Positions 15,414-63,912 are shown, counted from the first letter of the stretch. The stretch is 64,000 bases of DNA from an uncultured delta proteobacterium (GCA_963771465.1 CAVYTU010000019.1:64001-128000), one strand, 5' to 3'. Made by a program: numbers and translations. The notes: a model not told the origin generated them from the letters alone.

Positions 15414-15418
15414 GTCGG

Positions 15419-45875: not shown

Positions 45876-47174
45876 ATGCTTACTCGTGAAGAGAATGAAC
45901 GATTGACACGCGTGGGCCGCGGCACGCCGACGGGCGAACTGCTGCGGCGGTTTTGGCTGCCGTTCCTACTCACCGCCGATTTGTCCGAGCCTGACGGAGC
46001 GCCCGTGCGGGTAGGCTTGCTCGGCGAAAGGCTCTTGGCGTTTCGCGACACCAGCGGCCGCATCGGGCTGATCGACCGCGCCTGCGCGCACCGCTGCGCC
46101 GATCTGTTTTTCGGCCGCAATGAAGAGAACGGTCTGCGCTGTACTTACCATGGCTGGAAATACGACGTGGAAGGTAAATGCTTGGACATGCCGACCGAAG
46201 ATTCGGAAAGTTCTTTCAAAGATAATATCAAGCTCACCGCATACCCGGTGCGCGAGCGGGCGGGAATTTTGTGGACCTACATGGGTCCCAAAGAGCAAAT
46301 TCCCGAGCTGCCGGAATTTGAATGGGCACGAGTTCCCGATGGGCACCGATTTATTTCGTGGAACTTCCAGAAAAACAACTTCGTTCAGGCGATCGACGGC
46401 GGCATCGACACCGTCCATTCGGTATTTCTCCACAGCTCACTGGACTCCCATCACCGGCTTGATCAATGGCAGAAACAGGCGAAGCGTGACGGAGACGCGC
46501 GCCTGATGCATCGAGTGCGCACCAATCCGCCCAAGTTGGTCGCCAAGGATACCGACTATGGCGTCCTGATCGGCGGCAAGTATCGTGGCCGCGACGGCAC
46601 CGACTACTGGCGTTACAATAATTTTCTCATGCCGTTTTACACCATGCCTCCAGGCGGCGGCAGCGGTCTTAGCAAGAAAATTGCCCACGCCTTTGTGCCC
46701 ATCGACGACGAAAGTTGCATACGCTGGGTGTTCACCTGGAATTTTGCCGAGCCTTTGAGCGCAAAAGAAATCGCGGAGATGCGCGCCGGTTCGAGCGTCC
46801 ACGTGGAATTTATTCCGGGCACGCACTACCCGGCGCGAAACATGTCCAATGATTATCTGATCGACCGTGAGTCGCAAAAAACTCTGACGTTCACCGGCAT
46901 CAAAGGAATTGGCGAGCAAGATTTTTCGGTGCAAGAGGGCATGGGTGCAGTCGTCGACCGCACTCGGGAACATCTCGGCAGTAGCGATATCGGCATCGTC
47001 GCCATGCGCCGGCGGCTACTCAAGGCAGCGGCTGATCTTCAGGAAGGCGTCGCGCCGTACGCGGCGCTGCATGGCGACGTCTATCGAATACGGTCGGCTG
47101 AATTGGTCCTGCCTGCGGATGCGCCATGGGACGAAAATGAGAATTTGAAAGCAGCGATGACGGCAACCTGGTAG
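45876..47174 (+). CDS. Rieske oxygenase alpha subunit, third paralog
   Basis: CAHR...CTYHGW; DGGIDTVHSVFLH; EQD. Confidence 0.92.
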   Translation: MLTREENERLTRVGRGTPTGELLRRFWLPFLLTADLSEPDGAPVRVGLLGERLLAFRDTSGRIGLIDRACAHRCADLFFGRNEENGLRCTYHGWKYDVEGKCLDMPTEDSESSFKDNIKLTAYPVRERAGILWTYMGPKEQIPELPEFEWARVPDGHRFISWNFQKNNFVQAIDGGIDTVHSVFLHSSLDSHHRLDQWQKQAKRDGDARLMHRVRTNPPKLVAKDTDYGVLIGGKYRGRDGTDYWRYNNFLMPFYTMPPGGGSGLSKKIAHAFVPIDDESCIRWVFTWNFAEPLSAKEIAEMRAGSSVHVEFIPGTHYPARNMSNDYLIDRESQKTLTFTGIKGIGEQDFSVQEGMGAVVDRTREHLGSSDIGIVAMRRRLLKAAADLQEGVAPYAALHGDVYRIRSAELVLPADAPWDENENLKAAMTATW

Positions 47175-48340: not shown

Positions 48341-49327
48341 CTAGGAAATCTCGGTAAAGTACGGTATCGCTCTGAGCGCCATGCTGGCGGCGAGAATTCC
48401 CAGCGACGTCAAGGCGAATGGATAAAACCACGGCACTTGCCGGTCCAAGGTTTTCACTAGGAACGCGCCCCTTTCGGTGTTGTTGATATCGGCGTAAGCG
48501 CTTTGGAGCTGCTGCGCGTCGCGCACGTCATAATATTTACCGCCGGTGCTTTCCACCGCGGCGATGAGCCGCGGCGCGTCGCGCACCCGATCGACCTCGA
48601 CGCCGATGAAGTGGATCTTAAAATTTTCCGCCTTAGCTTTCGTGATCGCCTCGTAGAGATCCCGGCCGGTATTGTTCTCGCCGTCCGTGAGCACCACCAT
48701 GACTTTGCCTTTGGTCGCTCCTCTGCCCTCGCGCGCCTGCTTCAACGCCAGGTCGACCGAAGTAAAAATTCCTTCGCCGATGGCCGTTTGACCTTCGCCG
48801 GCGAGAGTCTTGTTATCGACCATTTGGAGGTAACGCCGAACATAGGCCTCATCGAAGGTCATCGGCGCCACGACATAACCGTTCTCGGAAAAAACGACAA
48901 TCGCCAATCGGTCATCCTGGCGCCGCTGCACGAATGCCGACATCGCCTCCTTGACAGCTTCAAGACGGCTCTTTTCTCTGGTCTTGATCCCCTGCCTGAG
49001 TCGCTCCAAAGAGCCCTTAAGATCGATCGGCTCCTGCATGCTCGACGACAGGTCGAGTACCATGACGATGTCCAACCCCTGCTTCGCCACCAAACGTTCC
49101 GCGTAGGGCAGCACCGGATCTAACAAGGCGACGACCAAAAAACCAAGCGCGACGTATTCGAGAAACTTAGGCAAGAAGACCAGGGGAGAGGCCGGGCGCA
49201 GATGCGGCTTGAGATAGAACAAGAGCGGGTGAACAAAATAATTCTTCCGGCGCCGCCAGCGAATCAGCAAGACCACGCCGATAATCGCGAGTAGAATCCA
49301 GAGCAGATCGAGCCGGGCAAATTGCAT
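48341..49327 (-). CDS. Membrane-anchored VWA protein (BatA/MxaC-like)
   Basis: MIDAS DLSSS, TAIGEG and LTDGENN; N- and C-terminal TMs. Confidence 0.88.
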   Translation of the reverse strand: MQFARLDLLWILLAIIGVVLLIRWRRRKNYFVHPLLFYLKPHLRPASPLVFLPKFLEYVALGFLVVALLDPVLPYAERLVAKQGLDIVMVLDLSSSMQEPIDLKGSLERLRQGIKTREKSRLEAVKEAMSAFVQRRQDDRLAIVVFSENGYVVAPMTFDEAYVRRYLQMVDNKTLAGEGQTAIGEGIFTSVDLALKQAREGRGATKGKVMVVLTDGENNTGRDLYEAITKAKAENFKIHFIGVEVDRVRDAPRLIAAVESTGGKYYDVRDAQQLQSAYADINNTERGAFLVKTLDRQVPWFYPFALTSLGILAASMALRAIPYFTEIS

Positions 49328-49503
49328 TATTCGTTCCCGTGCATTAGTTCAATGCCGCGAGCAGTACCGACATCAGACCGAGCGTCTTTTCATCACAAAG
49401 CCGGCAGGGGCAACCACCAGTGTAGTCGCTAAAACTCGGTATTCCATTATTGCGTTCTTTGCGGTTAATACTCCGAAGCTTGAACCTCGTGTACGATTCG
49501 GCG

Positions 49504-50475
49504 TTAGTGGCGCGCCAGGTCGGCGAATTTGCCGAGATCACCCTGCACTTGATCGCGCCAGTCTTTCCCCAGTTGAATACCTTGCGGGCTATAGAGCACC
49601 TGCTCGCAGCGCTCTAAAATACTTTTTACCGGCGCGCTCAGACCGTTCTGTCCGTGCTCTCGCAACATGGTTTCAATTTCCTGGGCGGTGAGACTTGCCG
49701 CTTCGATTTCCAACGACTCGCTCAAATAGCTGCGTAGGAACTGGCTCACTTGGGAATAATAACGCTGCTGATCCCCGGGAGATTCTCTGCCGATCGCTTG
49801 CGTTTGCTGCATGAAATCGCGCACCCTGCGCCGCCGCGCGCGCCGGCTGAGACGCTTTTTCACGGGTTTTTCTCGATGCGATTTCGCCCACAGACGGCGA
49901 ACCAACTGGATCATCAGCAATAGGAGTCCTGCCAATCCGAGAGCGATTGGAATAATCCATCTCTGTCTCGTCACTTGCCATAGATCACGGTTATCGCGAA
50001 GTCGCAGAGTGTCGGCGGTCAAAGTGGAACGCAGTCCCACTTTGGTAACCGGCACCGGCACGGACTCGGCCGCGCTTTCGCCGGCCGCGCGGGCTGCGCC
50101 CGTGCGGGTGAAATAATAGAGCGGAAACGACGGAATCCTGAGCTCCACGTGGCCGCTCTCGTAGGTGGTAAGAAGGATTTTGACTTCAGTGACCTGTTTG
50201 TTCGCTCCCAACGAGCCCTGACGCACGGCGATCTCGCGCACCACGAACGGCGCTAAATTCAGGTTTTCCTTTTTTAGATTGTCGACGACGATTTCGATAG
50301 TGGGATCATGCACCGCTTTGACAGTGTAATAAAAAGTATCGCCGACCCATATCGCGGTCCGGTCGAGCTGCGTCGACAGCACGATCTTAGCTTCTTTGGG
50401 TTTTTGAACCGGCGCGGCGGCGCTGAGTGTTAGGAAAGCGAGTAGCAATAACCCCATTGATTGAAGCGACTTCAT
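49504..50475 (-). CDS. BatD/MxaA-like accessory protein
   Basis: Signal peptide, beta-rich domain (WVGDTFYY), TM, then helical domain (LRSYL...LTAQE). Confidence 0.7.
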   Translation of the reverse strand: MKSLQSMGLLLLAFLTLSAAAPVQKPKEAKIVLSTQLDRTAIWVGDTFYYTVKAVHDPTIEIVVDNLKKENLNLAPFVVREIAVRQGSLGANKQVTEVKILLTTYESGHVELRIPSFPLYYFTRTGAARAAGESAAESVPVPVTKVGLRSTLTADTLRLRDNRDLWQVTRQRWIIPIALGLAGLLLLMIQLVRRLWAKSHREKPVKKRLSRRARRRRVRDFMQQTQAIGRESPGDQQRYYSQVSQFLRSYLSESLEIEAASLTAQEIETMLREHGQNGLSAPVKSILERCEQVLYSPQGIQLGKDWRDQVQGDLGKFADLARH

Positions 50476-51356
50476 TTACGCCTCTTACGCGCCAGGAAGA
50501 AACCCAAGAGCGAATCCAAGTAGGGCGAACCGACGGGGAGAAACAGATGATCCAGATTGAGATGATAAAATGATCGCTGCAGGCCAACCCTGCGCTCGTG
50601 CATGAGCGTGCGATATATATTTTTGTTGTGCCGGTTAAGATTGACCACCAACGCGCCGCCCGACTCGGCGTCGTGGAAACGCACGAACCCTTTGCCGCCG
50701 GGCAGCGCGGTGTCCCACTCGTCTTCAATAACAATGGGCATGAGATCATGCTTGCGCGCCAGATGGCTCAGCGCATGGGAGTGAAAACGATCTTCCACCT
50801 GAACGAAGTCCGAGATCAAAAACAATAGCGTCGACGTCGTCAGCCGCGTCAGCAGATGTTCGAACGGGAGACTGAAGTCGGTGCGCGTCGATCGCGGTTT
50901 TGCGTTCCACAGCGTTTCGACGACGCGCCAACTGTGCGCCTGTCCTTGCTTTAATGGCATATCCAATTCTATGCGATCGGTGAAGCCGAGCAGACCGACT
51001 TTCATATTGTCGCTGGCGGCGGAGAAAGCCAAAGTCGCGGCGATCCGCACCAGCAACTCGCGCTTCGAGCCATCGACGCTGGCGAAGTCCATGGAACGTG
51101 ACAAGTCGGCGATGATCACCGCGCTTAATTCCTTTTCTTCAAAGTCTTTCTTCACGAACGGATAACCCATGCGCGCCGTGGCGTTCCAGTCGATCTGCCG
51201 GTAGTCATCGCCATGCTGATAGCGCTTGTGCTGATCGAACTCGAAGCCACGCCCGCGCAAGGGGCTGCGATAATCGCCCACATGATGATCCCGCACCGCC
51301 TTGCGCGTATAGATCTCCAGATAGCGAAGTTCTTCCATTAGTTCTTGGGGAATCAT
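50472..51356 (-). CDS. DUF58 family protein (MxaS-like)
   Basis: G.GFEFDQHKRYQHGDDYRQIDWNATAR, DLSRSM and ISDF. Confidence 0.92.
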   Translation of the reverse strand: MIPQELMEELRYLEIYTRKAVRDHHVGDYRSPLRGRGFEFDQHKRYQHGDDYRQIDWNATARMGYPFVKKDFEEKELSAVIIADLSRSMDFASVDGSKRELLVRIAATLAFSAASDNMKVGLLGFTDRIELDMPLKQGQAHSWRVVETLWNAKPRSTRTDFSLPFEHLLTRLTTSTLLFLISDFVQVEDRFHSHALSHLARKHDLMPIVIEDEWDTALPGGKGFVRFHDAESGGALVVNLNRHNKNIYRTLMHERRVGLQRSFYHLNLDHLFLPVGSPYLDSLLGFFLARKRRK

Positions 51357-51466
51357 TTAGTCACACCTCGCCCCCACTCCACACGAAAGGGTGAAGGGTA
51401 AGCGGTTTTAGCGCGAGAATTGTTTTCATTTACAATTTGGAATTTTTAATTTTAAATTGAATCGTC

Positions 51467-52468
51467 CTATGGTATCGGCACCTTGCCTAACATCTCATCG
51501 ATAATTTCATCCGGCGAAATATTCTCGGCCTCCGCGCGCACGGTGCGGATCAAACGATGGCGCAGCGCGTCCGGCGCGATCCGCTTGACGTCGGCCGGCA
51601 GCACGTAGTCCCGGCCGGCAAAGAAGGCAGTCGTCCGCGCTAGAGCCAGCAGATGCTGCGCCGCGCGCGGCGAGGCGCCGTGCAGCACCATTTCGCTGAC
51701 CAAGGTCAAGCTCGTCGGCAATCCATTACGGGTCGCCCGCACGATGCGGATGACGTACTCGCGAATCGCGTCGCTGACGTAGGTTTGGCCGATCTCTCGA
51801 CGAATGCGGATCACATCCGCCGGCGTCATGATCGAGTGCACCGTCACCGCGCTCAAGTTACGCGCCAACATCGCCGCTTCGTCGGCGTGGGACGGATAGT
51901 CCACTTTTACTTTTAGAGAAAATCGATCCACCTGCGCTTCCGGGAGGGCGTACACGCCTTCCTGCTCCACCGGGTTTTGCGTCGCCAGAACCCAAAAGGG
52001 TTCTTCCAACGGATAGGTTGTTTCGCCGATCGTCACTTGGCGCTCCTGCATCGCCTCCAAAAGCGCGCTCTGAGTTTTTTGCGTCGCGCGATTGATCTCG
52101 TCGGCGAGTATCAAATTGGCGAAGATCGGCCCCTTCTCGGTGCGAAAAGAGCTCAGCGCCGTATCGAAGATGCGCGTGCCGATGATGTCGGCGGGAAGCA
52201 GATCGGGGGTGAACTGAATGCGCTGAAACTTGGCGCTGATGGTGTTGGCCAGCGTCATCACCGTCAGTGTCTTGGCCAAGCCGGGAACGCCTTCGAGCAA
52301 CACGTGGCCATAACCCGACTTCTCGTCGCCGTCGCGCCGAAACGAATAAGGAATCTCGGAAAATAGACCGATGAGTAAGCGCTGAATCAGCCACTCCTGG
52401 CCGACGATCACCTTGTTGATCTCCTGCGCCACCGCCTGCACGGCATCCGCAGCGCGTTTCTCACTCAT
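51467..52468 (-). CDS. moxR: MoxR-family AAA+ ATPase
   Basis: HVLLEGVPGLAKT, RIQFTPDLLPAD, DEINRA, ATQNPVEQEG and GASPRA. Confidence 0.95.
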   Translation of the reverse strand: MSEKRAADAVQAVAQEINKVIVGQEWLIQRLLIGLFSEIPYSFRRDGDEKSGYGHVLLEGVPGLAKTLTVMTLANTISAKFQRIQFTPDLLPADIIGTRIFDTALSSFRTEKGPIFANLILADEINRATQKTQSALLEAMQERQVTIGETTYPLEEPFWVLATQNPVEQEGVYALPEAQVDRFSLKVKVDYPSHADEAAMLARNLSAVTVHSIMTPADVIRIRREIGQTYVSDAIREYVIRIVRATRNGLPTSLTLVSEMVLHGASPRAAQHLLALARTTAFFAGRDYVLPADVKRIAPDALRHRLIRTVRAEAENISPDEIIDEMLGKVPIP

Positions 52469-52543
52469 TGCTTCGCCAGCATGCACAGACTACTTGACCT
52501 CGCAGAATGATCTGGAGTTCGAATTGAGAGTACTCGTCGCATC

Positions 52544-53545
52544 TCACAATAACAGCGCGACCAGAAACATCCCTACCGCGGCCATCAATACCGCGTGATG
52601 AAAATCCTGATATTCGACGGACTTTCTAAATCCGACAATTTCGCGCTCGCTCAAGACAATTTCGGCGAAGGACTTTTCCAACTCTAGACCGCTGAAAGAG
52701 CGGTAAAATTTGCCGCCGGTGCTCTCGGCGATCCAATGCAAATTGCTCTCATCGAAGCGGCTGATGATCCGGTTGCCCTTGTCGTCTTCGAGATAGATCG
52801 GCCGGTCCTTCTCATAGCCGACCGGTATCGGCGCGCCGTCGCGCGAACCGACGCCGATGGTATGAACTTTTATGCCCTGCTCTTTGACCTCGGCGACCGC
52901 CGCATTGAGCTCATTGCCGTTGTCCTCGCCGTCCGAAAGCAAAATGAAAACCTTTTTGTGGCGCGCCGTTTCCGGCAGGATTTCAGTTTCTTTCTTGACC
53001 ACGGTTAGACCGTTTCTCAGCCCGCGGCCGATATTGGTGCCGTGATTGATCGTTGCGTCGTCTTTTAAATAGTCGATGTAGTAGTGAATATTATTGGCGT
53101 CCTCGGTTAGGTACGAAACGACTATGCTGTTGCCGGCAAAAGAGACCAGACCGATGCGGTCTTGTGCCAACTTGGTGCGCACGAACGAACCCATCACGTC
53201 TAACGCGCGCGCCAAGCGCGACGGCTGAATATCGCCGGCGCGCATCGACGGCGAGGTATCGAGCAAAAAAACCAAATCCATGATGCCGGGCTGGGGAATC
53301 TTTCGCTCTTGAATCCACTGCGGATGAGCCAGCGCGACAATGATCGCGGTCATCACCAAGTTCAATAATAAGCAGCGTAAGAAATCCTTGCGCACGGACG
53401 CGACGTGGGAGATGCGCGTGAGCGCGCGGCCGACGCCCAAGATTTTCCGCGTGCGCCGTTTGGTATAGATAAAGTAGAGCCAACACGGCAACAGCGCGAG
53501 CAGCAGAAAAAACCACTTGAAATAGTCAGGGTAGAGAAATTTCAT
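52544..53545 (-). CDS. Membrane-anchored VWA protein (BatB/MxaL-like)
   Basis: DTSPSM.A.DIQPSRL, GTNIG and LSDGED. Confidence 0.88.
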   Translation of the reverse strand: MKFLYPDYFKWFFLLLALLPCWLYFIYTKRRTRKILGVGRALTRISHVASVRKDFLRCLLLNLVMTAIIVALAHPQWIQERKIPQPGIMDLVFLLDTSPSMRAGDIQPSRLARALDVMGSFVRTKLAQDRIGLVSFAGNSIVVSYLTEDANNIHYYIDYLKDDATINHGTNIGRGLRNGLTVVKKETEILPETARHKKVFILLSDGEDNGNELNAAVAEVKEQGIKVHTIGVGSRDGAPIPVGYEKDRPIYLEDDKGNRIISRFDESNLHWIAESTGGKFYRSFSGLELEKSFAEIVLSEREIVGFRKSVEYQDFHHAVLMAAVGMFLVALLL

Positions 53546-53559
53546 CGCCAACAAGCCAT

Positions 53560-54177
53560 CTAGCCGCGCTTCTCAGGTGCCATCTGCTGTTGCGATGGGT
53601 CTTGGGGACGCATTTTTTCGATCAGGGTTTTGACTTTTTGCTGCTGCTTTTCCTGACTGCGATCTTGCTTCGCAAAAATCGCGCGAACCAACTCGTAGTC
53701 GAACTTTAGATCCCAATCGTCGGGCTTCGCCGCCAGTCCTTTCTGATATTCGGACAATGCCCCTTTGAGCGCAGCCAACGACGCCTCCGGGTTTTTGCTC
53801 TCGGTGGCTTGACGGAACAACAGATTGCCCATCCAGAACGCGTAATCGCTGCTTTCGGCCAACTCCGGTAGATTAGCCGGCGATTGTTCAAGTTTTTCCA
53901 CGGCCGCTTGATTTTGTTTCTGGTGATAGAGAATCGCTACCTGGTTGAGATTGACCTGGGTGTATTCTTCCTTGAACAGCCTTGCCAACCAAGGCAGTTT
54001 TTGAAATGGCATCTCGGCGCGGCGATAGGACTCCAGCGCTGCCGTGCTATCGCCCTGCTGAAACGCATTTTGAGCGGCCTCGAACTGCCGTGTCATCCAG
54101 CCGTAACCCAACAGTCCCAGAGAGAGCAGCAGCAACAACAGATAACCGGCGGTAATAAGATATTTTCGAATCGGCAT
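53560..54177 (-). CDS. TPR-like protein (BatC/MxaK-like)
   Basis: N-terminal TM, helical repeats, PDDWDLKFDYEL. Confidence 0.75.
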   Translation of the reverse strand: MPIRKYLITAGYLLLLLLSLGLLGYGWMTRQFEAAQNAFQQGDSTAALESYRRAEMPFQKLPWLARLFKEEYTQVNLNQVAILYHQKQNQAAVEKLEQSPANLPELAESSDYAFWMGNLLFRQATESKNPEASLAALKGALSEYQKGLAAKPDDWDLKFDYELVRAIFAKQDRSQEKQQQKVKTLIEKMRPQDPSQQQMAPEKRG

Positions 54178-54181
54178 TGTT

Positions 54182-54580
54182 TCACTTGCTCTCAGTGGGA
54201 AACTTGCGCTGTGCCCAGGCAGAGAAGCCATTTTCCAGCACCGCGACGTTGCGATAGCCTTTGCCGCGCAGCATCAAGTAGGAATACGACTCATCGACGC
54301 CGCCGGGCGGACAAGCGCAATAAAGCACCACGCGGCCCGCTTTCGGGATCTCTCCGAGCCGTTTCGCCAACTCGGCGATGGGAATCGACAGCGCGCCCGG
54401 TAAATGCGCCTTTTGGAAATCGCCAGCCGGACGCAGATCGACAAAGATAAACTTCTCGCCGCCCTCGAGCAGCTTCTTAACCCGTTCGGCGGAAATCGGT
54501 TCAATATATTCGTCATCGTGGCCCGCATGCGCTACCATCGGCGCGACCGTCGCGCAGGCCAAAGATCGCCAAGGTGACAA
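54182..54580 (-). CDS. Rhodanese-like protein with YCxCP loop, probably exported
   Basis: VDLRP, HLPGALSIP, LYCACP and LENGFSAW; AHA-GH cleavage-like site; start uncertain. Confidence 0.85.
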   Translation of the reverse strand: MSPWRSLACATVAPMVAHAGHDDEYIEPISAERVKKLLEGGEKFIFVDLRPAGDFQKAHLPGALSIPIAELAKRLGEIPKAGRVVLYCACPPGGVDESYSYLMLRGKGYRNVAVLENGFSAWAQRKFPTESK

Positions 54581-54652
54581 TCGCAGGTAAGCGTCTGAAT
54601 CGACGTATGCCCGCGATGCGAGCGCCGAGTCTGATTTGCCGGCCGTACATGA

Positions 54653-56370
54653 TTACTTGAGATTGTCGTAGATAACCTTGCCGCCGACGATCGTCATGAC
54701 GCTGGTGATCTTGCCAATCTCTTCGTCACTGACGGTCAGGTAATCCTTGTCTAGCACCACCATGTCACCCCATTTGCCGATTTCCAAGGTGCCGAGAAGT
54801 TTGTCACGGAGCACGTACTCCGATGCCCAACGGGTCGCCATCAGCAGCGCGGTTTTGCGGTCGATGGCGTTGCGCGCGCCCCAGACTCGGCCATCGGCGT
54901 CTTTGCGGGTAATTAGAGTGCCCAGCCCGGAAAACGGCTTGATCCCAAGATCAGCGTCGTCTTGCTGCCAGGCCACCCGGCCACCGGCATCGAGAATCGA
55001 TTTCACCGGCAACACCCAACGGTGCGCCGCCTCCTCGCCGTAATCGCGCATCACTTGATTGGTGCGCAGGAGATATTTCGGCGCGCAGCTCCAGGTAATG
55101 TTGAGTTTCTTGGCGCGCTCGATCTGATCCGGCCGCGGGTTCATGGTGCAATGATCGATGGCGTGGTTCTTGGAGCGGATTTGATCCAACGTCAGCCCGC
55201 TTCCGCGCTGGCTTTCTCGATAATGTCCATCAGCACGTCGGTGGCTTTATCGCCGGCACTATGAGTTCCAGCGATCCGAACGCCCGCCTTGACGGCCGCC
55301 CAAGCGGCACGCCCACGCACGTTATCGGTAGTCAGCCGGCAATCCTCGCGCGCTTTAATTTTGGGATCCGGCGACAGCGTCGTGCACACGCCTGGATAGG
55401 AAGAATCCGTCGAGCCGGACGAAATGCCGATCAGCCAGAACCGCTCGGTGCCGTGGCCGATCAGATTGCCAAAGCGATTGACGAAACTCTCGCCATAAAT
55501 GTTATCGCGATAACCGGCCTCATTGGTGTAAGCGAGCCGGATCGGCATCATGCCTTTTTGATCCATGTAATGAAACGCCGAGATCGCTTCCGAACCCAAA
55601 GACGAAGACCAGGTCGTGACTCCGGCGGCGCCCCACATCTCCAATTCCTTCAAATAGATCGGCGCGAGATCTTCCGGCTTGGGCTTGGGAATAATCTCTT
55701 CGTAGAATATGAGACTGACGCCGGCGCCGATGCGGCCGGTAAATTCTCCCTGTTGGTTTTTCGGAATCTCGAGCTGCGCTGGATCGTAGCGCTTGAGCAG
55801 CTGCTCCAACGCTTTGCTGTTGGCCATCGCTTTGGTGTCGGTGACATGAACCATGGTCGGATTGTTCGGCGTAAACTTGTCCAAGTCGAAGCGTGTCTTG
55901 TTGTTGACGAAACCATCGGCGACGCTGCGCGGGCGGATGCGCGTGATCAGCCACTCGCCGGGTTTCTTTTTCTTGGCTGCTTCGGCCAAACGCTCAAGCA
56001 TTTCCTCTTCGGTGCGCCCTTCGATCTTCACTTCTAACAAATCTGGGTTCATCGTCGGCGCATGGCGGTCGAGGCCGTACTCATGCAAGTGGGAATGAGT
56101 ATCGATAAGGCCGGGAATCACCGCGCGACCGCGCAAATCGATGCGCCGGGTCGCTGGGCCGGCGAGCGCCAGCACTTCCGCATTGCGCCCGACTTTGAGA
56201 ATCTTGCCGTCGCGCACGGCGATCGCCTGCGCCAGACTGAAATTCGCATCCACCGTGATGATCTTACCGTTGTGCAGCACCAAGTCGGCATAACGAATCA
56301 CTTCGGCGGGCAGAGCCTGCGCCCAAGCGTGTCCGCCGCCCAGCGCGAAATATAGGGCGATCACGCGCAT
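54653..56370 (-). CDS. Secreted YtcJ-like amidohydrolase (Amidohydro_3), frameshift near 55195
   Basis: AWA-Q signal, PGLIDTHSH, HSAGD, IDH and GTLEIGKWGD; one added base restores AGLTLDQ; true start may be 56407. Confidence 0.88.
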
Positions 56371-56428
56371 GAAAATCTTTCTTTCGCGTTGTCAGAGTGA
56401 ATCGCATCGCTATCTCTCCCTCTTAGCT

Positions 56429-57505
56429 TTATTCACCAACCCGCGGCAGCCCCCAAGCATCCACCGCGATCCGTTTCATTAAATCGTCTTCCCGGTCACG
56501 GCAACCGACGCCACAGATCGAAACGTTCGCGCCCGTCGCTAGTTTATGCGCCAACGTCTTTGGCACCAGAAACGACGCCCGGCCGGGATCCACCGCATCC
56601 AATACCTCCTGACCTTCCTGTGATGCGAGAAATTCAATCCACAACAGCGCCGCATGGCGATTTGGCGCGCGGGCGAAAACCGCGGTCGGCTCGTGGAAGG
56701 CCGCCGGCAAAGGATTGGCCACCAGCCGCTTGATCGGCGCGCTGGGATTGTCCCTGACAAAACGTTCCAACGCGTGCAAATAGACACCGCACATGAACGA
56801 GAATTCGCCGGCGGCGAGTCGGGTCAACCCTTGAGTGCTGCCGCGCACCACGATGGGATTATTTTGCTTGAGCTTGCGCGCGTAGTCCAAAAGTTTGTCC
56901 TGTCCCCAACGAGCGGCCAGCGACGCCAGCACATTGGGTTTGCTGTCGACGGTGAATTTGCCGTTCCATTTGGCATCGAGACAGCTCTCCCAGCCGGACG
57001 GCAGAGAATCGGCGCCAACTCGATTGGCATTGTAAGCCATGATGCCGATGATGCTGCCGCTCCACACCACTACGCCGGAATCATCGATCATTTCCTGGGG
57101 AATGTTTAGCTGCCCATTTTGGACAATTTTTTTGTAGTCGTACTGGCGAAACAAGTTATTCGAAAAGTATTGGCTCCAGACATTGGGTGCCGGCCGAAAC
57201 GCGTCCACCACCGTCTTGCCTTCGATCAATTCGCCCAACTGCTTTCGAAAGTCGGCCGGTTTGGACCAAACGACATCGTTAATGAACGGGTATTTCTTCT
57301 TGAACGCTTCGATCAGATGGGGCGTCGTGCTCTCCTCAAATCCCGGAGAAACGATCAGCTTGCCTTCTTTCCGCGCGCCTTCGAGAATATGCCCCCTGGT
57401 TTCGTAGATCAGTTCGGGCGCGCTTTGTGAGAATGCGCGCGAGCAAAATGGCCAAGCTGCCAGAGCAAAAATAATCAAGCCAAGCACGCTCTTATTTCTG
57501 TTCAT
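56429..57505 (-). CDS. ABC substrate-binding protein, divergent member of the same family
   Basis: Signal peptide, ARKEGKL, AYN and HAALLWIEFLASQEGQ. Confidence 0.85.
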   Translation of the reverse strand: MNRNKSVLGLIIFALAAWPFCSRAFSQSAPELIYETRGHILEGARKEGKLIVSPGFEESTTPHLIEAFKKKYPFINDVVWSKPADFRKQLGELIEGKTVVDAFRPAPNVWSQYFSNNLFRQYDYKKIVQNGQLNIPQEMIDDSGVVVWSGSIIGIMAYNANRVGADSLPSGWESCLDAKWNGKFTVDSKPNVLASLAARWGQDKLLDYARKLKQNNPIVVRGSTQGLTRLAAGEFSFMCGVYLHALERFVRDNPSAPIKRLVANPLPAAFHEPTAVFARAPNRHAALLWIEFLASQEGQEVLDAVDPGRASFLVPKTLAHKLATGANVSICGVGCRDREDDLMKRIAVDAWGLPRVGE

Positions 57506-57655
57506 GTCATGTTCTCCAGCAGAAAACAGCGGCCCAATCTCACTTGGATAACTATTTGCCTTATACTACCGCGCTTCGGCTAGCGTCAAACGACGTAACC
57601 CAACTTTAATCGACGACATGAATTTCTGTTTGCGTGCTTTGCGGCTAATTCATTT

Positions 57656-59711
57656 CTAGTGCACGTGGTCATCGGGCGCCGGCGCGGACGGCGTCTCCTG
57701 GTTCAGTCGATCGACGTCGCGAAAAAGATTATCCAGTTTGTCCCAACCCGGCGCCATCGCGCGGGATCCAGCGCGCGCGCACATAGCCTTGGCGATCGAT
57801 GAGAAACTCCATATGCGGCGGCACCGGCGGGTCGGGCTGGGTGCCCTGCTCGGAAAAACTACGGCGGTAAAGCGCGTAGGCGTCGAACGCTTCACGGCTG
57901 CCGTCGGTAACCAGCGATAGCGACTTGATCTTGGCGTCGAGGCCGCGCACTTCGCTCAACTCTCTCGGTACGAGGAGAACCTTTACGTTCTTGGACTGCA
58001 GTTCACTCGATAATTTTTCCAGCTCGGTGAGCCGCGCTAGCGAATCCGGCAAGGAAAAAAGCACGAGCATGACGACATTGTTGCCGCGATGATCCTTGAG
58101 CGAGTGGTTCTCGTCGTTGACAGTGCGATAAACAAAATCCGGCGCCACCAACCAAGGCTCAGGCTCCACCAGCGCGGACATCTGGCGCGCCCGCTCGGCC
58201 GCCGACAGCGTGCGCAGAAAATTGATCATGTCCCAGCGTTCTTCTTCGTCCAAGCTCGCGCGCGAAACCCGGCATCCGGCTGGCGTGCCGTCTCGTTTGA
58301 ATCCGTAAGTCAGCCACCAGAAGAGATCGCCGGCCGTGTGATCGGCGGAGTGCTTGGCCGTCAAATCCGCCGGTCTGGGTTTGAACCCTTTGCCATTGGG
58401 ACCGTCGCCGTAGCCGCCGACGCCGTGGCAGGTCGCGCACGCTTCTTGGTAAAAATGATCACCATTGGCGACGGAAATAACGTTGTAGGGAACCGAGGGA
58501 CGAAGATAGGTGGTCGGGTAAGCGTCGATGGAAATCGCCGTGTGATAAATCCAACCGCCGTAACCGAGTGTCGCCAAACTGACGCCGAGCAAACGATAAC
58601 GTGGCCGGCGCCGCAGCATAAACGCGCAGGCGAAACCGATAACGCCGGCGCCCACGAGCCACTTGGCGTCGCTCATTTGCGCGCGGAGCTTCGCGCTTAC
58701 GCCAGTGGTGTTCCAATTCCAGCGAAACGCAAACGGCCACTCCGGCTGGACATGGCGCGCCGGCGGCGTGACGCTCATCATGCCGACAACGACTAAAATA
58801 CCTGCGCCAAAAATCGCCTCCCGCGTGACGTTGCGCCGGAGCCGATGCAGCAGTTCGGCAATGTTCGCCGCGGCTTGTGCAACGCCCGACGCGAGAATGC
58901 GCGGTTTGAGTTTAAAAAGATTGACCGCTGCGAGCGCGATCAATGGCACAATCAACGCGAGCTTTGTCAGAAGTAATTGCCCATAACTCGTTCCGAGCAG
59001 GGGCGGCACCGCGCCGACCAGCGTCCAAGCGTTGTATGCGCCGGTTGCGATGAGAATCGTAACGCTGACAAATCCAAGCGCGGAGAAGCGCCGGGTAGCC
59101 GCCTTAAACACGGCTTCATTCCAAGCTGGCACCACGCGGCTCAACCAAAGCAGAAACCATGCGAAGAAGACCAATCCGCCCAGCCACGTGCTGGCTGCAA
59201 GCAAATGCGCCGCTGCGACCGCGAGCTGCACAGCGAGCCAAAGGCCTTCGCCAGCAGCAGCATGACCGGAGAAAACCGGCGCCATCACCAACAATGCCGC
59301 GAATATTAACCCAGCTGCCCGCCAATTAGTGGATTCGCTCCGATCCAAGCGATTGAAGATAACTTCCAAGAACAGCAGCAAGATCATTCGCATCGACCAC
59401 ACCAAGCCGTAGCGGGTGCCGATCAATACTCCGGCCATGACCGTCGGATTCAACGCCGCGGCGAAGGACAAACCGGAGACGGCGACGATTTGCAGCCAGA
59501 ACGCCAACAGGCCGGATAAGAAAACCGCCAGCAGCGCCCAGCGCGCGACGCGCCGCTGGCGGCCGTCGAATGCCGCGAACTCAGGCGATTCTAAACCGCC
59601 GGCGCTGGCCAATGCGGGGCGTGATACCAGGAAGTAAAATGCCAAAGAGCCAAACAGCAGCGCGGTGGAAGCGAGATGAAAAAATCGAATGAGGCCTGAA
59701 GCGGTAATCAC
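57656..59711 (-). CDS. copD: CopD + cytochrome c + thioredoxin/peroxiredoxin-fold fusion (frameshifts near 58275 and 57748)
   Basis: RFFH, SGHAAA, HLLAASTWLGGL, RRFS and YGQLLLTK; CATCH; APDF and FLIDRQGYVRARW; C-terminal DDHVH. Confidence 0.88.
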
Positions 59712-59826
59712 TGGACTAGATAATTTACATTCGCCCCCGTTTCGTTCTTGCAGCCGCGCCGAGGGCGCCGGAACGCTGGCGCGGCGACAAACTTCGACAC
59801 CAGCGAGAGCTGTTAGTGTGGATGGA

Positions 59827-60276
59827 TCAGTTGGTCTTGGCGCCGCTCGCCACGGGGAATTTGCGCTGCAGCCAGCCTTTGATGCCCTCGGGCATGATCG
59901 CGATATTGCGATAGCCGTGATCATCCTTGAGCACCTGAAAGGCATCCTGAATTAGCGTTGCCTGCGGACAGTCGCAGTAAAGAATCACCCGGCCTGAGCG
60001 TGGAATCGCTTTCAAGTTATTTTCCAGTTCCTTCATCGGAATCGAGCGCGCGCCGGGCAATCGACGCTCTTGAAACTCTTTAGTCGTGCGCAGGTCGATG
60101 ATGACCAAAGCTTCCTTGTTGTCCAAATAGAACTTCACCCGCTCCGGCGTCACCATGTCGACGACATCTTCGGCGTCGTGCGCCGCTTCAATAATCGGGG
60201 CGATGGACAATAGTGCCGCGCCAAGCGCGAGCAACAGAATCCCCAAGCAAACACGATTGCGAATTCGTCCAACCAT
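59827..60276 (-). CDS. Exported rhodanese-like protein with YCxCP loop
   Basis: Signal peptide, IDLR, LPGARSIP, LYCDCP and EGIKGW. Confidence 0.85.
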   Translation of the reverse strand: MVGRIRNRVCLGILLLALGAALLSIAPIIEAAHDAEDVVDMVTPERVKFYLDNKEALVIIDLRTTKEFQERRLPGARSIPMKELENNLKAIPRSGRVILYCDCPQATLIQDAFQVLKDDHGYRNIAIMPEGIKGWLQRKFPVASGAKTN

Positions 60277-60302
60277 AATCAGAAACTCCCTAAAGGTGCT
60301 GA

Positions 60303-60386
60303 TTCACCACAGGGTCACGAAGGTTTTGTGTAGTGGCGCAGCGCGCTGCGCCACTACTTCGTGCGCTTTGTGTCCTTCGTGGTGAA
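60303..60386. repeat. Composite repeat: CACCAC-type inverted element enclosing a GTAG palindrome
   Basis: TTCACCAC...GTGGTGAA ends; perfect 28-bp palindrome GTAGTGGCGCAGCGCGCTGCGCCACTAC at 60330-60357. Confidence 0.8.
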
Positions 60387-60413
60387 GCCCTACTCTCTCG
60401 CACCGCGCTGCCG

Positions 60414-62172
60414 TTAGAAATTTGGCGCCTGATGCAAGACCTTGCCGCCGACCATGGTGAGCAGCGACTTGATTTTCCTGATCTCTCTTTCCGGCACCGT
60501 GAAGTAATCATTGTCCAAGATCAGCAGATCGCCGAATTTGCCGCGCTCCAAGGAGCCGAGCAGGTTCTGGCGAAGCACGTACTCCGCCGCCCAGTTGGTC
60601 GACATCTTCATCGCTCGCACCCGGTCGATGCGCTCGCGGCCATTGTACACTTTGCCTTCGACTTCGCGATTGACCAGCACGTCAAGATAGTGAAACACCG
60701 TGCCGACTTTGAAAATCTCGTTGTCATCTACTTCCATCACGGTTTTTACATTGGCGTCAAGCAAACTCTTGATCGGCGCCACCCAGGACAAATATTTTTC
60801 ACCGTAATCGCGCAGCACCCGCGGGCTCTCCTCGATATATTTGGGCGCGCAACTCATCATGATATTGAGCTTTTGCAGCCGTGGAATTTGGTCCGGGCGG
60901 GGATTCATCGTGCAGTGGTCGATGGCATGCCCCTTGGCGCTAATTTGCTCCAGGGAATAGCCGGCCCGCGCGCTGCCTTTTTCAATGGCGTCTAACGTCA
61001 TGTCGAGAGCCTTGTCCCCGGCGGTGTGAGTGCCCGACCAGCGCAAGCCGGACGCAACGGCACTCTCGACGAAATCCTCGAAACCGGTGTTGTGTATCTC
61101 GCGATCCTTGATCTCTTTGGGAATGTCCGGTGGTTGGATGGTGGTAAGAATGCCGGGATAGGAAGCATCGATGCCGCGCATGCTAGCGCCGACAAACCAG
61201 AGATAATCGGTTCCGTAGCCGCTTATCCCGTGCATCTCTGGAACCACCTGCGCCGGCGTGCCGACGCCCGGCGTATAACCGTATCGAATACCGATCTCGC
61301 CGCGTTGATCCAAAAGCTGATAAGCGGCGAGGATCTTGAGCGAACGAATGTTACTCGACCAAGTCGTGACGCCGTAGCTTGCCCAGCGAAGATTTTCTGC
61401 TTTGTAGATTTCCGCGAGTTTCTCCACGGTCGGAATCAAGTGATCCGACAACACCATGCGATTGATGGTATTCGAGGAAAAACCATCCTCGCGCATCAGA
61501 TTCGGTTCCATCGGTCCATGCCAACCGGCGCGAATCAGCTCCTGCGCTTTGCCGTTGGTGATCGACGAAGTCCGCGTCCGCAAATAAACCGGATTATTGG
61601 GCGCGATCTGGTCCATCTCGCTGCGGGTGACCACTTGGCTGCGCATCGCGGCCTGCACGGCATCCATCGGCTTGCCGTCTTTACCGATCGCTTGTCTCGG
61701 CAAGTCCAATGCGATCCACTCGCCAGGCTTGCGCTTCTTCACTTCTTGGCGAATCACGTCAAGAGTTTTTTGTTTCACGTTTTCCCAAGTTTCGTTTTGC
61801 TCGGCGCGCACGCGCAAGCCTCGGCGAGCCTTCGCCGAGCGAATCCATCGCATAATCGAAGAGATGTGAATGGGTATCAATAATCCCCGGCACCACCGTA
61901 CGCCCTTTGGCGTCAATCACCCGGGTCTGCGGTCCGCGCAAGGCAAGAATCTGTTTATTCGTAGCCGCGAGTAAAATTTTGCCATCTCTGACCGCCACCG
62001 CTTCAACAACCGCGCCGGCATTGGCGGAATTACTCTTATCGTCCATCGTGTAGATTTTGCCGTTATGCACGATGACATCCGGATAGCTGACAACCTCCGG
62101 CGGCAAGCTTTGGGACCACGCGGCCGTCGTCACACTGAAGAGCACGAGCAAACTAAAAAACAATCGTTTCAT
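60414..62172 (-). CDS. Secreted YtcJ-like amidohydrolase, second paralog, frameshift near 61818
   Basis: Sec signal AWS-Q, PGIIDTHSH, HTAGD, IDH and GSLERGKFGD. Confidence 0.88.
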
Positions 62173-62328
62173 GAGATCCTCCCCAACCAATTTTAAGTCG
62201 ATGTTGTTGTTAACGCGCAGTTTCTTGCCGTGTAGCACACACCCAGTCGTTTGAAAAGCCATTGATCGCAAACGAATAGCTTCGCATCGGGCGCAACGAT
62301 GACCACACCCGCGTTAAGCGCAAAAAAA

Positions 62329-63444
62329 TCATTTCTCCGCGCGTGGAAAACCGTAAGCGTCGACCACCAGTTGCATCCACTTCGGCATGTTAAGAAAAGT
62401 GCGGTGATCGTTGACGGAAACTTTTTTGCCTTTGATCAAGCGTGACACCTCGCCGTCGGTGTACATGCTGGATTTGAGCGGCTCATTGTCATCGATGATT
62501 TTTTGTCCTTCACGGCTCGCCATATGTTCGATAAATAGAAGGGCGGCGTGCCGATGGGGAGCGGTCTTGAGAATAAACTGATTCTCACGCAGCCACACCG
62601 GCGCCGGCTCGATGATTTTACACATCAGCGATTTGGTCACATCCTTGCGTTGGGCGTCGACGCAGCTGTTGTAAAAAGTCATCTGATGGACCGCCTGCTC
62701 GCCGGTAGCGATGGCGCCCATGGCACGGGCGTTGCCGCGCAGCCAGACCGGCTGCTGGTCTTTGATCTGGCGGGCGTATTTCACCACCCACTCCTCGCCC
62801 ATAAGGACCACCAGCGTGGCCATGCACTGAGTGCGGATGTCGGAAATGAACTTTCGCCCTTTGAATTCCGGCTTGAGAAAATCTTCCCATTTGTCGGGCA
62901 CCGCCTCCGCGGCGATGCGGTTCTTATTATAGGCGATGCCGCAAATGCTGCTCGCCACAGACACCAAATTACGGTTCTCAGGATCAACCATTCTCGGATT
63001 GATGTTGAGCACGCCCTGCTGCGACATGCCTAAAATATCGATCTTCATACCGTTCGCGATGTTCTCGACATAGAACTCGGAGCTCGCCTCCGAGGTGTCG
63101 ATGTCTTTCACCGCCCCAGCCTTCAGTTCCAGCAGAAAACGCTGATACGCTTCCGGACCGCCGATCTCGTCAACGCGAACTTTGATAAACGGATACTTCT
63201 TACTAAACGATTCCGCCATCGGCTTGAAGGATTCGGGATCGAGCGACGATATAACCCGCACCGAGCCTTCTTGTTTTGCCTTGGCGAGAATCTCATCGCG
63301 CGAACCGATAAACATGAAACCTTTGCTCTCGGCAGCTTTCTTAGCTTCGAGAGCGGCCGAACTCGCCGTCGCAGCTTCGGCGGCGGGCCTAATGAACCAA
63401 AAACCAATCAACAAGGAAATGACTACAGACAAATATCTTCCCAT
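62329..63444 (-). CDS. ABC substrate-binding protein, close paralog of 39459
   Basis: SSLDPESFKPMA, CGIAYNK and AYGFPRAE; GAGGAGG RBS. Confidence 0.88.
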   Translation of the reverse strand: MGRYLSVVISLLIGFWFIRPAAEAATASSAALEAKKAAESKGFMFIGSRDEILAKAKQEGSVRVISSLDPESFKPMAESFSKKYPFIKVRVDEIGGPEAYQRFLLELKAGAVKDIDTSEASSEFYVENIANGMKIDILGMSQQGVLNINPRMVDPENRNLVSVASSICGIAYNKNRIAAEAVPDKWEDFLKPEFKGRKFISDIRTQCMATLVVLMGEEWVVKYARQIKDQQPVWLRGNARAMGAIATGEQAVHQMTFYNSCVDAQRKDVTKSLMCKIIEPAPVWLRENQFILKTAPHRHAALLFIEHMASREGQKIIDDNEPLKSSMYTDGEVSRLIKGKKVSVNDHRTFLNMPKWMQLVVDAYGFPRAEK

Positions 63445-63494
63445 ATCGATCCTCCTCGAATTTTTTAGCATCACGATAATAAGGTTGCTGCTGT

Positions 63495-63853
63495 CTATTT
63501 ACTTTCGCGCACGGTAAACGGAAAACTCTGCTCCACCACATGGCCATCGACGGACAATACCCGAAACTTGACAATATAACGACCCGATGGCATCTGCTTG
63601 AGTGCGACAGACAGTTGCTTGGGATCCTCAGCCGACACCTGAGCGTTGTCCGCATCGACGCGCTTGCCGCTCGGGGTCAAAGACCGACGCCGAAGAATAT
63701 TTCGGCTCCAGCCGCTCGTTGAACCACAACTGAATTTTCCCAGGCGAAGAAAACAGCGTAGCGCGTCCCGCCGGCACGGATTTCACCAGATACGCGTGGG
63801 CCGACGCGACGGCGGGAATTAAGCAAAATGGTAAAAAGTAATAGCCGATACAC
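63495..63853 (-). CDS. copC: Copper-binding protein CopC (frameshifts near 63674 and in the signal peptide)
   Basis: Manual translation gives ASA-HAYLVKSVP...LWFNERLEP...YIVKFRVLSVDGH; N-terminal His and DGH present, no Met-rich site. Confidence 0.85.
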
Positions 63854-63912
63854 CTAATGTGTCCTAAGCCGTCTGATGCGAGAAACGCGCGTCCGAGAAA
63901 TGCGAATCACTA

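Follow-up and report, generated by a model that had tools for sequence, protein, structure and literature searches.

Operons that combine a MoxR-type ATPase with DUF58 and VWA proteins are widespread, and we know of no client for those of the Bat type; outside methanol dehydrogenase, the clients and mechanism of MoxR-DUF58-VWA operons are to our knowledge still unclear. What such an operon might act on is the question raised by a locus in an uncultured delta proteobacterium, where a six-gene MoxR set runs on from genes for amidohydrolases (AHs), rhodanese-fold (Rhd) proteins, solute-binding proteins (SBPs) and the copper proteins CopC and CopD. The locus lies between positions 48,341 and 63,853 of the window, that is, the whole 64,000-nucleotide (nt) stretch that we analysed (C19:64001-128000 of genome G000). 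A first-pass annotation had described 14 co-oriented genes in the order copC, SBP, AH, Rhd, copD-cytochrome c-thioredoxin fusion, SBP, AH, Rhd, TPR, VWA, moxR, DUF58, BatD/MxaA-like gene and VWA, and had suggested that they may be a dedicated assembly line for a periplasmic enzyme. Gene calls from open reading frame (ORF) lists and Pfam, with an additional scan of NCBIfam models, recovered all 14 genes in this order on the minus strand (Table 1). The observation is thus confirmed, and the interpretation is partly supported; we read the locus as a variant form of a MoxR/VWA-assisted periplasmic enzyme system of putative function. The case bears on how Sec-exported metalloenzymes get the right metal outside the cytoplasm, and an AH family that stands beside three MoxR subtypes offers a concrete candidate client.

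The strongest evidence for a link comes from the relatives of the enzymes. A quick maximum-likelihood tree of 54 Amidohydro_3 proteins united the AH3/AH1 type (AH1 lies in the window and AH3, intact at 582 aa, just past its right edge) with the enzymes of loci L114 and L117 and of genome G465 in one clade with a Shimodaira-Hasegawa-like approximate likelihood ratio test (SH-aLRT) value of 97, and a MoxR gene was found within 10 kb for 8 of the 14 rows of the AH3/AH1 clade. L117, which is contig G892:C17 and has a relative in L115, encodes four AHs and a cupredoxin, followed by MoxR, DUF58, an uncharacterised 334-aa protein and VWA. G465, a metagenome-assembled genome (MAG) of the Gammaproteobacteria, has a pyrroloquinoline quinone (PQQ) dehydrogenase, a cytochrome c, two metallo-beta-lactamase (MBL)-fold proteins, AH, MoxR, DUF58, an uncharacterised protein of 527 aa and a pair of VWA proteins. 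The MoxRs of L117 and G465 are 34% and 41% identical to the window MoxR, no closer than the five other paralogs of G000, a genome with six MoxR loci in which about 1.8% of the sequence lies within 10 kb of one. The AH clade thus adjoins MoxR-DUF58-VWA sets of three MoxR subtypes, two of which are not orthologous to that of the window, and G892 alone carries two AH-MoxR loci with different MoxR subtypes.

The gammaproteobacterial order to which G465 belongs allowed the neighbours to be told apart. An enzyme of the AH3 clade is present in 8 of 126 genomes of this order, and six genomes besides G465 (G886 and G888-G892) keep the arrangement MBL, AH, MoxR, DUF58, unknown protein, VWA and VWA, with AH identities of 70-88% while VWA identity drops to 44-49%. 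AH adjoins MoxR in all seven of these genomes, and PQQ dehydrogenase with cytochrome c accompanies them in only three (G465, G890 and G891); the conserved neighbours are therefore the AH and the MBL protein rather than the PQQ enzyme. Another client such as PQQ dehydrogenase had been named at the outset as grounds for abandoning the AHs, and these counts answer that concern, leaving on the other side a MoxR operon in G027 that has no AH of this subfamily. Of the two MBL genes in G465, the first was compared with NCBIfam and scored 273.6 bits against the model for subclass-B3 metallo-beta-lactamases (cut-off 240), and its product is by this match predicted to be another periplasmic two-metal amide hydrolase. 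B3-type MBL-like genes (L175:14219-16029 and counterparts in L192-L197) are kept directly upstream of the AH-MoxR cluster in environmental Gammaproteobacteria MAGs.

A further association comes from a complete chromosome of the Acidobacteriota (L005), where a MoxR operon of the orthologous type (MoxR 59.5% identical) is split between MoxR and DUF58 by an 8-kb insert that carries two Amidohydro_3 genes and a GMC oxidoreductase. Among the 80 loci listed by a generic-pattern profile scan of genome contigs, all from relatives 23-40% identical, two (L005 and L020) had a MoxR. Taking the recurrence as a whole, we consider it probable that there is a functional tie of some kind between the AH clade and MoxR-DUF58-VWA sets.

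Are the AH genes and the MoxR set of the window also transmitted together? Among 60 relatives, AH3 (E<=1e-60) was detected in six and the protein encoded at the BatD position (E<=1e-20) in seven, and four genomes, G009, G017, G025 and G035, had both. Only G024, among the genomes whose BatD-position protein is at least 46% identical, had no AH3-type match at E<=1e-60; it has the MoxR set and a CopC-SBP-CopD-SBP stretch, and its only match is of the type of AH6, the outermost AH of the array, on a short contig. The island recurs in rearranged form, at 46-87% identity, in 4 of the 60 relatives and on a 101-kb metagenome contig (L103), the metagenome scan having yielded 79 loci. G009 has the order CopD-cytochrome c, SBP remnant, AH, Rhd, TPR, VWA, MoxR, DUF58, X (the BatD-position gene) and VWA; in G017 one contig carries AH and Rhd running on into the set from TPR, and a second one carries Rhd, CopC, SBP, AH, Rhd and CopD; and G035 has AH, Rhd, CopC, CopD-cytochrome c, TPR and VWA. 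G035 is an unpublished genome, on which this last order, the arrays of L083 and one of the four genomes with both proteins depend. The L103 cluster, compact and with every gene intact (53-87% identity), reads TPR lipoprotein, AH, AH, CopC, Rhd, CopD-cytochrome c, TPR, VWA, MoxR, DUF58, X and VWA. The AH island and the MoxR/VWA set are thus inherited together, and their adjacency survives rearrangement.

Gene spacing supports a single operon. Rhd2 would stop about 4 nt before the start of the 'TPR' gene if the latter begins at its second Met, the gap between 'TPR' and VWA_A is 5 nt, and DUF58 overlaps the BatD-position gene by 4 nt. A scan of the region for promoters and terminators stayed at the level of shuffled sequence (22 terminator-like sites versus a shuffle mean of 20.1). 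The view that the three modules, enzymes, copper genes and MoxR set, form one unit is borne out by co-inheritance and adjacency, and it is qualified by the copper module and the MoxR operon each also occurring without an AH. The distribution is patchy, and the island is rare among species representatives: in each of two scans of phylum samples (401 genomes; E<=1e-90 or 1e-95) the one genome with AH3 was that on which the sample was centred, a weak negative given that three candidates per genome were scored. This patchiness points to an accessory island that may be mobile. A phage-type integrase, a porin-like gene and a Uma2 nuclease stand upstream of the cluster in L103, and no tRNA genes that could mark island borders were found in L001 (the contig stretch past the right edge) or L103.

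The copper genes CopC and the CopD-cytochrome c fusion lie inside every version of the island. Of the 18 metagenome loci whose enzyme is 72% or more identical to AH3, 12 have CopC just downstream of it, the contigs of the other six ending first. The predicted mature CopC begins HAYLV and has DGH near its C-terminus, an N-terminal His type that we take to be the common Cu(II)-only type. Its orthologue in L103 scored 76.1 bits with the NCBIfam model copper_CopC, below the cut-off of 95, and relatives match Pfam CopC with 81-85 bits against 23.3; CopD exceeds its Pfam cut-off (74.3 versus 32.1 bits) and stays below that of NCBIfam copper_CopD (158.8 versus 195). CopC with an N-terminal His and the CopD membrane domain together qualify as a predicted copper trafficking pair. 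The copper theme returns independently in the sister lineage of L114 and L117, which pairs the AH with a small exported protein bearing a type-1 copper motif (H...C-x2-H-x6-M), whose gene in L114 overlaps the AH stop codon by 4 nt and has an NlpE gene two genes upstream. A link to copper biology is likely for the soil island and for the cupredoxin sister lineage.

Both Rhd proteins exceed the cut-off of PF00581 (47 and 58 bits versus 22.2). In an alignment of 27 Rhd-fold proteins, a His directly after the predicted cleavage site, at mature position 2 (G-H, A-H, S-H or T-H, the site being placed by eye), is invariant, and Cys102 and Cys104 in LYC-[DA]-C are nearly so. In sulfurtransferase rhodaneses, basic residues abound in the loop that carries the catalytic Cys; the loop here, C-[DA]-C-P-x, has a Cys at its start and contains neither Arg nor Lys as judged by eye. 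The best NCBIfam match of Rhd1 is the model 'rhodanese-related (seleno)protein LYCAU' (50.1 bits, below 115). We infer a copper-binding or redox role for the Rhd proteins rather than sulfur transfer. A rhodanese-like stretch 44% identical to Rhd1 occurs at C15:1030937-1032744 of G000, about 750 nt from a DUF58-like gene and far from any MoxR.

Could copper itself be what the locus is for? The enzymes, as Zn- or Fe-type AHs, would then hydrolyse amide-containing copper ligands that enter through the porin and are bound by the SBPs; copper would pass to Rhd and CopC and on to the CopD-cytochrome c protein, which would reduce and import it, and the MoxR/VWA set would assemble or gate the complex. 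In every version CopC and CopD-cytochrome c occupy the middle of the array, the sequence of CopC assigns it to the His1 Cu(II) type, the AHs have ordinary ligands, and SBPs and a porin-like gene are present, all of which would suit such a scheme; an Amidohydro_3 member acts on N-substituted formamides. Six paralogous enzymes are nevertheless many for one class of ligand, the gammaproteobacterial AH-MoxR clusters have neither CopC nor CopD, and the stretches inspected contained no TonB-dependent receptor and no chalkophore synthesis genes. Copper acquisition thus appears quite unlikely to us.

What the MoxR set might do is best approached through the systems that it resembles. In the MxaRSACKL set of methanol dehydrogenase, MxaR is the MoxR ATPase, MxaS resembles DUF58 and the VWA proteins are MxaC and MxaL; Ca2+ insertion into the enzyme requires MxaACKL. 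The likeness of the window set to MxaRSACKL, claimed in the first-pass annotation, holds at the level of domains, as Pfam finds AAA_3, DUF58 and two VWA proteins in one operon-like run. The parts are the same, namely a MoxR AAA+ protein, DUF58, one small membrane protein and a pair of membrane VWA proteins with a metal ion-dependent adhesion site (MIDAS), as is the position beside a predicted Sec-exported periplasmic metalloenzyme. MxaRSACKL goes with a PQQ dehydrogenase, an enzyme that, together with a cytochrome c, also shares the AH-MoxR cluster of G465, G890 and G891; no PQQ domain was found by Pfam among 16 cluster proteins or 44 other proteins of the window, which differs further in having 'TPR' and one VWA upstream of moxR and a TIM-barrel amidohydrolase as neighbour enzyme. 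With Bat (Bacteroides aerotolerance) operons the window set has in common a MoxR AAA_3 protein, DUF58, a helical-repeat protein and a pair of VWA membrane proteins. The best NCBIfam matches of the latter are Leptospira BatB and BatA models, at scores far below the cut-offs (95.5 and 100.4 bits, versus 350 and 380). The canonical Bat order is moxR, DUF58, batA, batB, batC, batD; that of the window, by contrast, is TPR, VWA, MoxR, DUF58, X, VWA, an order also present in G009, G017, G025, G027, L103 and L005 (the G024 contig ends after X). Unlike Bat operons, the operon of the window is joined to a defined set of exported enzymes and to copper genes.

MoxR/VWA sets are known to act on metal centres, as in MxaRSACKL, NorQD and CoxDE: in NorQ-NorD, CbbQ-CbbO and CoxD-CoxE a MoxR protein and a VWA/MIDAS partner stand beside the metalloenzyme that is matured or reactivated, and the CoxDE centre holds copper and sulfur. 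The clients of NorQD, CbbQO and CoxDE are cytoplasmic or membrane-bound, whereas the candidates in the window are predicted to be Sec-exported and its VWA proteins are membrane-anchored. By analogy, the most likely role of the window MoxR set would be to load or re-activate the metal site of exported enzymes, a role that we favor because of these metal-centre systems and because a BatA-like VWA domain is reported to face the periplasm (PMC5700661). The AHs would then be the clients, the help would concern their metal site, and copper would serve as the metal or as a redox partner.

Our best explanation, advanced tentatively, is a horizontally mobile, periplasm-directed enzyme island with two accessory modules. 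A porin-like outer-membrane protein and the SBPs would serve a battery of Sec-exported YtcJ-type enzymes with a conventional His/His/His/His/Asp site, and since these enzymes would fold outside the cytoplasm, their metal centres would be loaded or kept active there by two modules of the same operon. The first, comprising MoxR as a cytoplasmic AAA+ ATPase, DUF58, the small membrane protein, two VWA/MIDAS proteins and the TPR-like protein, would work as MxaRSACKL does for methanol dehydrogenase; the second would handle copper and redox equivalents through the Cu(II)-binding CopC, the CopD-cytochrome c protein and exported Rhd proteins with N-terminal X-His and LYC-x-C. A more specific proposal, namely that the AH3 clade is the first dedicated client family of Bat/MRP-type machines, which would load or re-activate its metal centre in the periplasm, with copper as metal or redox partner supplied in the island through CopC, CopD-cytochrome c and a hitherto undescribed class of Rhd proteins, and with cupredoxins in place of these proteins in the sister lineage, we regard as doubtful. 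We found no paper on this combination of genes in a literature search outside which most subscription journals lay, in agreement with the original remark that it is undescribed. Two uncharacterised families are flagged by the locus: a periplasmic AH clade that is expanded in soil bacteria (one MAG has as many as 19 matches) and an Rhd-fold protein that travels with CopC and CopD.

The enzymes at the centre of this proposal are typical members of their family by profile and by fold. PF07969 (cut-off 29.7 bits) matches the C-terminal part of AH1 with 109.3 bits and the two parts of AH2 with 61.3 and 97.5 bits, and among the matches listed it was found in all 120 AH3 homologues, whose names include Candidatus Acidoferrales and Deltaproteobacteria MAGs. 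The AlphaFold2 (AF2) model of AH3 has a TIM-barrel fold at a predicted local distance difference test (pLDDT) score of 92.7, and its closest matches in the PDB are 3igh and 3icj, uncharacterised YtcJ-like hydrolases of Pyrococcus (Foldseek E of 8e-26 and 2e-25, target-normalised template modelling (TM) scores of 0.73 and 0.71; profile match E of 5e-19; sequence identity 22-23%). The window enzymes share fold and metal ligands with these two and differ from them in their predicted export, a conserved Cys pair, their tandem arrays and the accessory neighbourhood. The signals of the AHs had been called Sec-type with no twin arginine, and the N-termini, judged by eye, fit this (e.g. MKRLFFSLLVLFSVTTAAWSQ).

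Several observations weigh against the proposed enzyme island with two accessory modules. First, the AH clade and MoxR do come apart: two clade members, in L114 and G465:C3, lack a MoxR within 10 kb, as do nine loci of less closely related paralogs in G463 and G464, whose contigs are mostly short; an AH paralog of G018 (36-39% identical) stands alone; and the MoxR label was not significantly clustered on the tree, 43 of 500 shuffles being as low. Conversely, G027, a well-assembled and 96%-complete genome, has the orthologous MoxR operon (MoxR 77-80% identical) and the AH subfamily nowhere, and in G031 the last two genes of such an operon stand at a contig end, with no close AH found in the genome. 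Second, the enzymes look ordinary, the metal ligands H101, H103, H379, H416 and D479 (HxH/H/H/D) being conserved except in AH6. The subfamily-specific Cys417 and Cys438, which lie at the ends of neighbouring strands in the AF2 model, are both Cys in 34 of the 50 rows tabulated, and where they are missing it is mostly as a pair, so that they look like a disulfide pair of an exported protein, and no motif for a copper or sulfur centre was found in the AH sequences. Third, the identities of adjacent AH and Rhd paralogs are uncorrelated (Spearman 0.14, 10 pairs), and MoxR is cytoplasmic while its presumed clients are periplasmic, a coupling without explanation here as for methanol dehydrogenase. 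Finally, four of five paralogs (43-47%) inspected in genus mates have Rhd, CopC and CopD-cytochrome c with no AH or MoxR within about 9 kb (L186:7201-11513, L188:7660-11461, L189 and L190, in G004, G019, G018 and G028), the fifth locus having no Rhd. CopD-cytochrome c fusions as such occur in 15 of the 60 relatives, and the rhodanese and copper genes evidently need no AH, because their module stands alone in the genus mates.

Just upstream of the stand-alone module in L186 and L188 is a gene for an LVIVD-repeat protein with a faint SBP56-like match, which may be an exported partner of the copper module. A kinship with thiocyanate dehydrogenase was considered and rejected for this protein, which gave no such match and only weak matches to haloalkylphosphorus hydrolases.

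These stand-alone modules raise the question of whether three separate functions, a catabolic AH battery with porin and SBPs, a copper uptake or homeostasis module and a generic Bat-like envelope or stress operon, merely co-travel on one island, none acting on another. Both the copper modules of L186, L188, L189 and L190 and the AH-free MoxR operon of G027 fit such hitchhiking, as do the integrase and Uma2 nuclease just upstream in L103, the patchy distribution of AH3 (6 of 60 relatives and 1 of 401 genomes in each phylum sample) and the generic nature of the SBPs, which are not cluster-specific because G000 has more than 100 paralogs of the SBP_bac_6 type. Hitchhiking leaves unexplained, however, why the same AH clade stands beside two further, non-orthologous MoxR-DUF58-VWA sets, why AH and MoxR remain adjacent in seven genomes of one order while PQQ dehydrogenase varies, how AH genes came to be inserted inside the L005 operon, and the 4-nt junction of Rhd2 and 'TPR'. 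We therefore consider mere co-travelling unlikely.

It had also been suggested that the TIM-barrel enzyme might contain copper or sulfur and be redox-active. In this version the AH-fold proteins would be copper/sulfur redox enzymes with cytochrome c or cupredoxin as electron partners, the Rhd proteins exchanging sulfur or reducing equivalents with them. The small partners are indeed of redox type (the blue-copper motif of L114 and L117 and the cytochrome c domain of the CopD protein), the Rhd loop LYC[AD]C fits the Cys form of the LYCAU model, below its threshold, and there is a precedent in Thioalkalivibrio, where copCD is reported to adjoin, and to be induced with, the periplasmic copper enzyme thiocyanate dehydrogenase, which has a cytochrome acceptor (PMC5744179). 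Like the window, that locus places CopC and CopD beside an exported enzyme and a c-type cytochrome partner; unlike the AHs, thiocyanate dehydrogenase is a known copper protein, unrelated to amidohydrolases, and the part of the gene table covered has no MoxR/VWA or rhodanese-fold genes (PMC5744179). The canonical hydrolase ligands of the AHs are intact and their Cys pair is disulfide-like, the closest structures are the YtcJ-like hydrolases 3igh and 3icj, the basic residues of sulfurtransferases are missing from the Rhd loop (by eye), and the gammaproteobacterial clusters pair the AH with B3-type MBL-like hydrolases instead. We know of no amidohydrolase-fold oxidoreductase. The suggestion of a copper/sulfur redox enzyme is thus not borne out, and we judge it very improbable.

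As several genes of the locus are broken in the assembly, we asked whether they are intact in nature. CopC is in three frame pieces and AH1 and AH2 are in two each, a 178-aa ORF at 54653-55189 being the C-terminal part of AH2 and no separate gene. An in-frame stop or selenocysteine codon in AH2 was rejected: the two ORFs are in different frames, which indicates a 1-nt indel, and the break is a missing base within a G run of the coding strand. Over 54000-63900 the locus was compared with contigs that are at least 92% alike, taken from one RNA library and three soil metagenomes of DNA. At the AH2 break, all four metagenome contigs with coverage carry an additional base behind 55195. In AH1, contigs are one base shorter at 61816 or 61822, and at the second copC break one relative's contig is one base shorter at 63669. 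Three of the four breaks are matched in this way; among the rows shown, no difference fell at the first copC break, which is in the signal-peptide region. Similarly, the orthologues in G009, G017 and L103 are all unbroken: that of AH1 in G017 (87% identical) is a 615-aa ORF, that of AH2 in G009 (93% identical) covers AH3 residues 11-577 in a single tblastn segment, and that of CopC (L103:11937-12320) has 127 aa. Because near-identical contigs and orthologues are without them, the breaks are probably assembly errors or changes private to the strain, and the genes were treated as functional; real pseudogenes were judged unlikely, other soil contigs restoring the frame at the AH1, AH2 and second copC breaks. 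The RNA library, X20, gave short contigs over parts of the stretch, which is no proof of transcription. Adjacent ORFs that overlap by 58-76 nt and a truncated SBP match, at 15419-17412, 27990-29758 and 36050-37892 of the window, may reflect further 1-base frame errors.

It had been suggested that the operon may extend past the right edge of the window, and the next 11 kb (L001) do continue on the same strand, adding four AHs, three rhodanese-like genes, one TPR lipoprotein and a pair of porin-like genes. The order is AH3, Rhd, AH4, Rhd, AH5, a Cys-free Rhd, AH6, the TPR lipoprotein and, further on, two 522-aa genes, with two frame breaks in AH4 and one in AH5 as assembled. The whole co-directional block thereby comprises about 24 genes, including 6 AHs, 5 Rhd-fold proteins, CopC, CopD-cytochrome c, 2 SBPs and the six-gene MoxR set. 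In AH6 the metal motif DTHSH is replaced by DSDGD and the Cys pair is also missing, and Rhd6-type copies have neither loop Cys. This first AH/Rhd pair of the array (AH6 and its Rhd, L001:8241-10073 and 7729-8160) is degenerate yet conserved (83% and 71% in L100), with the AH6 type found in G024 and L103 as well, and may represent non-catalytic paralogs. The tandem 522-aa genes (L001:12341-13909 and 14276-15844) are 99.2% identical, with a signal peptide and a C-terminal RFRW; they matched nothing in Pfam or NCBIfam, in the Atlas they lie closest to clusters of hypothetical proteins (mostly Candidatus Binatota) and of Porin_O_P proteins, and a porin-like homologue (72% identical) is the one upstream of the cluster in L103. 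The exported AH family is strongly expanded in Candidatus Sulfopaludibacter sp. SbA3 (G463, the genome of L007) and in G464, MAGs of about 2.8-2.9 Mb with 19 and 10 AH3 matches (E<=1e-60), often in tandem.

The labels originally given to the window genes are firm for SBP, Amidohydro_3, Rhodanese, CopD/Cytochrom_C, VWA, MoxR and DUF58, and weak for 'TPR', 'BatD-like' and thioredoxin. The 'TPR' protein had no match of its own in the Pfam and NCBIfam scans; its counterpart in L005 (29% identical) reaches 27.5 bits with TPR_16, below the cut-off of 32.7, and the position of the gene is conserved in G009, G017, G024, G025, G027, G035 and L103. The BatD-position protein had no match in NCBIfam, and VWA_A matches the BatA N-terminal domain of Pfam with 22.3 bits, below 25.9. 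The thioredoxin-like tail of the CopD fusion (AhpC-TSA, 23.7 bits, below 26) contains no cysteine in translation and therefore cannot be a thiol oxidoreductase. The true start of this fusion is probably near 59720, and AH1 likely starts at the Met at about 62172.

Table 1. Genes of the locus, in order of transcription (coordinates in the window)
Gene	Product	Coordinates	Strand	Evidence and remarks
copC	CopC	63495..63853	-	Three frame pieces as assembled; predicted mature N-terminus His-Ala-Tyr
SBP1	Periplasmic solute-binding protein (SBP_bac_6/8/1)	62329..63474	-	Pfam SBP_bac_6, 63.6 bits
AH1	Amidohydrolase (Amidohydro_3, YtcJ-like), Sec-like signal	60414..62271	-	Pfam, 109 bits; one frame break near 61816-61840
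Rhd1	Predicted exported rhodanese-fold protein, LYCDC loop	59827..60276	-	Pfam Rhodanese, 47 bits
copD fusion	CopD membrane domain, c-type cytochrome (CATCH) and thioredoxin-like domain	57729..59945	-	Maximal ORF; CopD 74.3 bits, Cytochrom_C 38.3 bits
SBP2	Periplasmic solute-binding protein	56429..57505	-	Pfam SBP_bac_6
AH2	Amidohydrolase (Amidohydro_3)	54653..56370	-	Pfam; one frame break at ~55190-55196
Rhd2	Predicted exported rhodanese-fold protein, LYCACP loop	54182..54580	-	Pfam Rhodanese, 58.2 bits
'TPR'	Membrane-anchored helical-repeat protein, first gene of the MoxR set	53560..54231	-	ORF and conserved position
VWA_A	BatA/BatB-like membrane VWA protein, DxSxS MIDAS motif	52544..53554	-	Pfam VWA, 71 bits
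moxR	MoxR-type AAA+ ATPase (AAA_3 and AAA_lid_2)	51467..52486	-	Pfam, 213 bits
DUF58	DUF58 protein, VWA-like, DLSRS motif	50472..51356	-	Pfam, 178.5 bits
X	Membrane protein at the BatD/MxaA position	49504..50475	-	Sub-threshold DUF4381, 26.3 bits versus 27.2
VWA_B	Another membrane VWA protein, BatA-like; ends the cluster	48341..49327	-	Pfam VWA, 68.3 bits

Elsewhere in the window, three SBP_bac_6-type paralogs (37035-37892, 39459-40586 and 40593-41759) stand beside an ABC permease gene (41771-43546). Three Rieske/LigXa-like oxygenases (24236-25594, 34592-35860 and 45876-47174) lie among cupins, MmgE/PrpD, an arylmalonate-decarboxylase-like gene and a TctABC transporter, and this region looks like a catabolic one for aromatic or carboxylic compounds.

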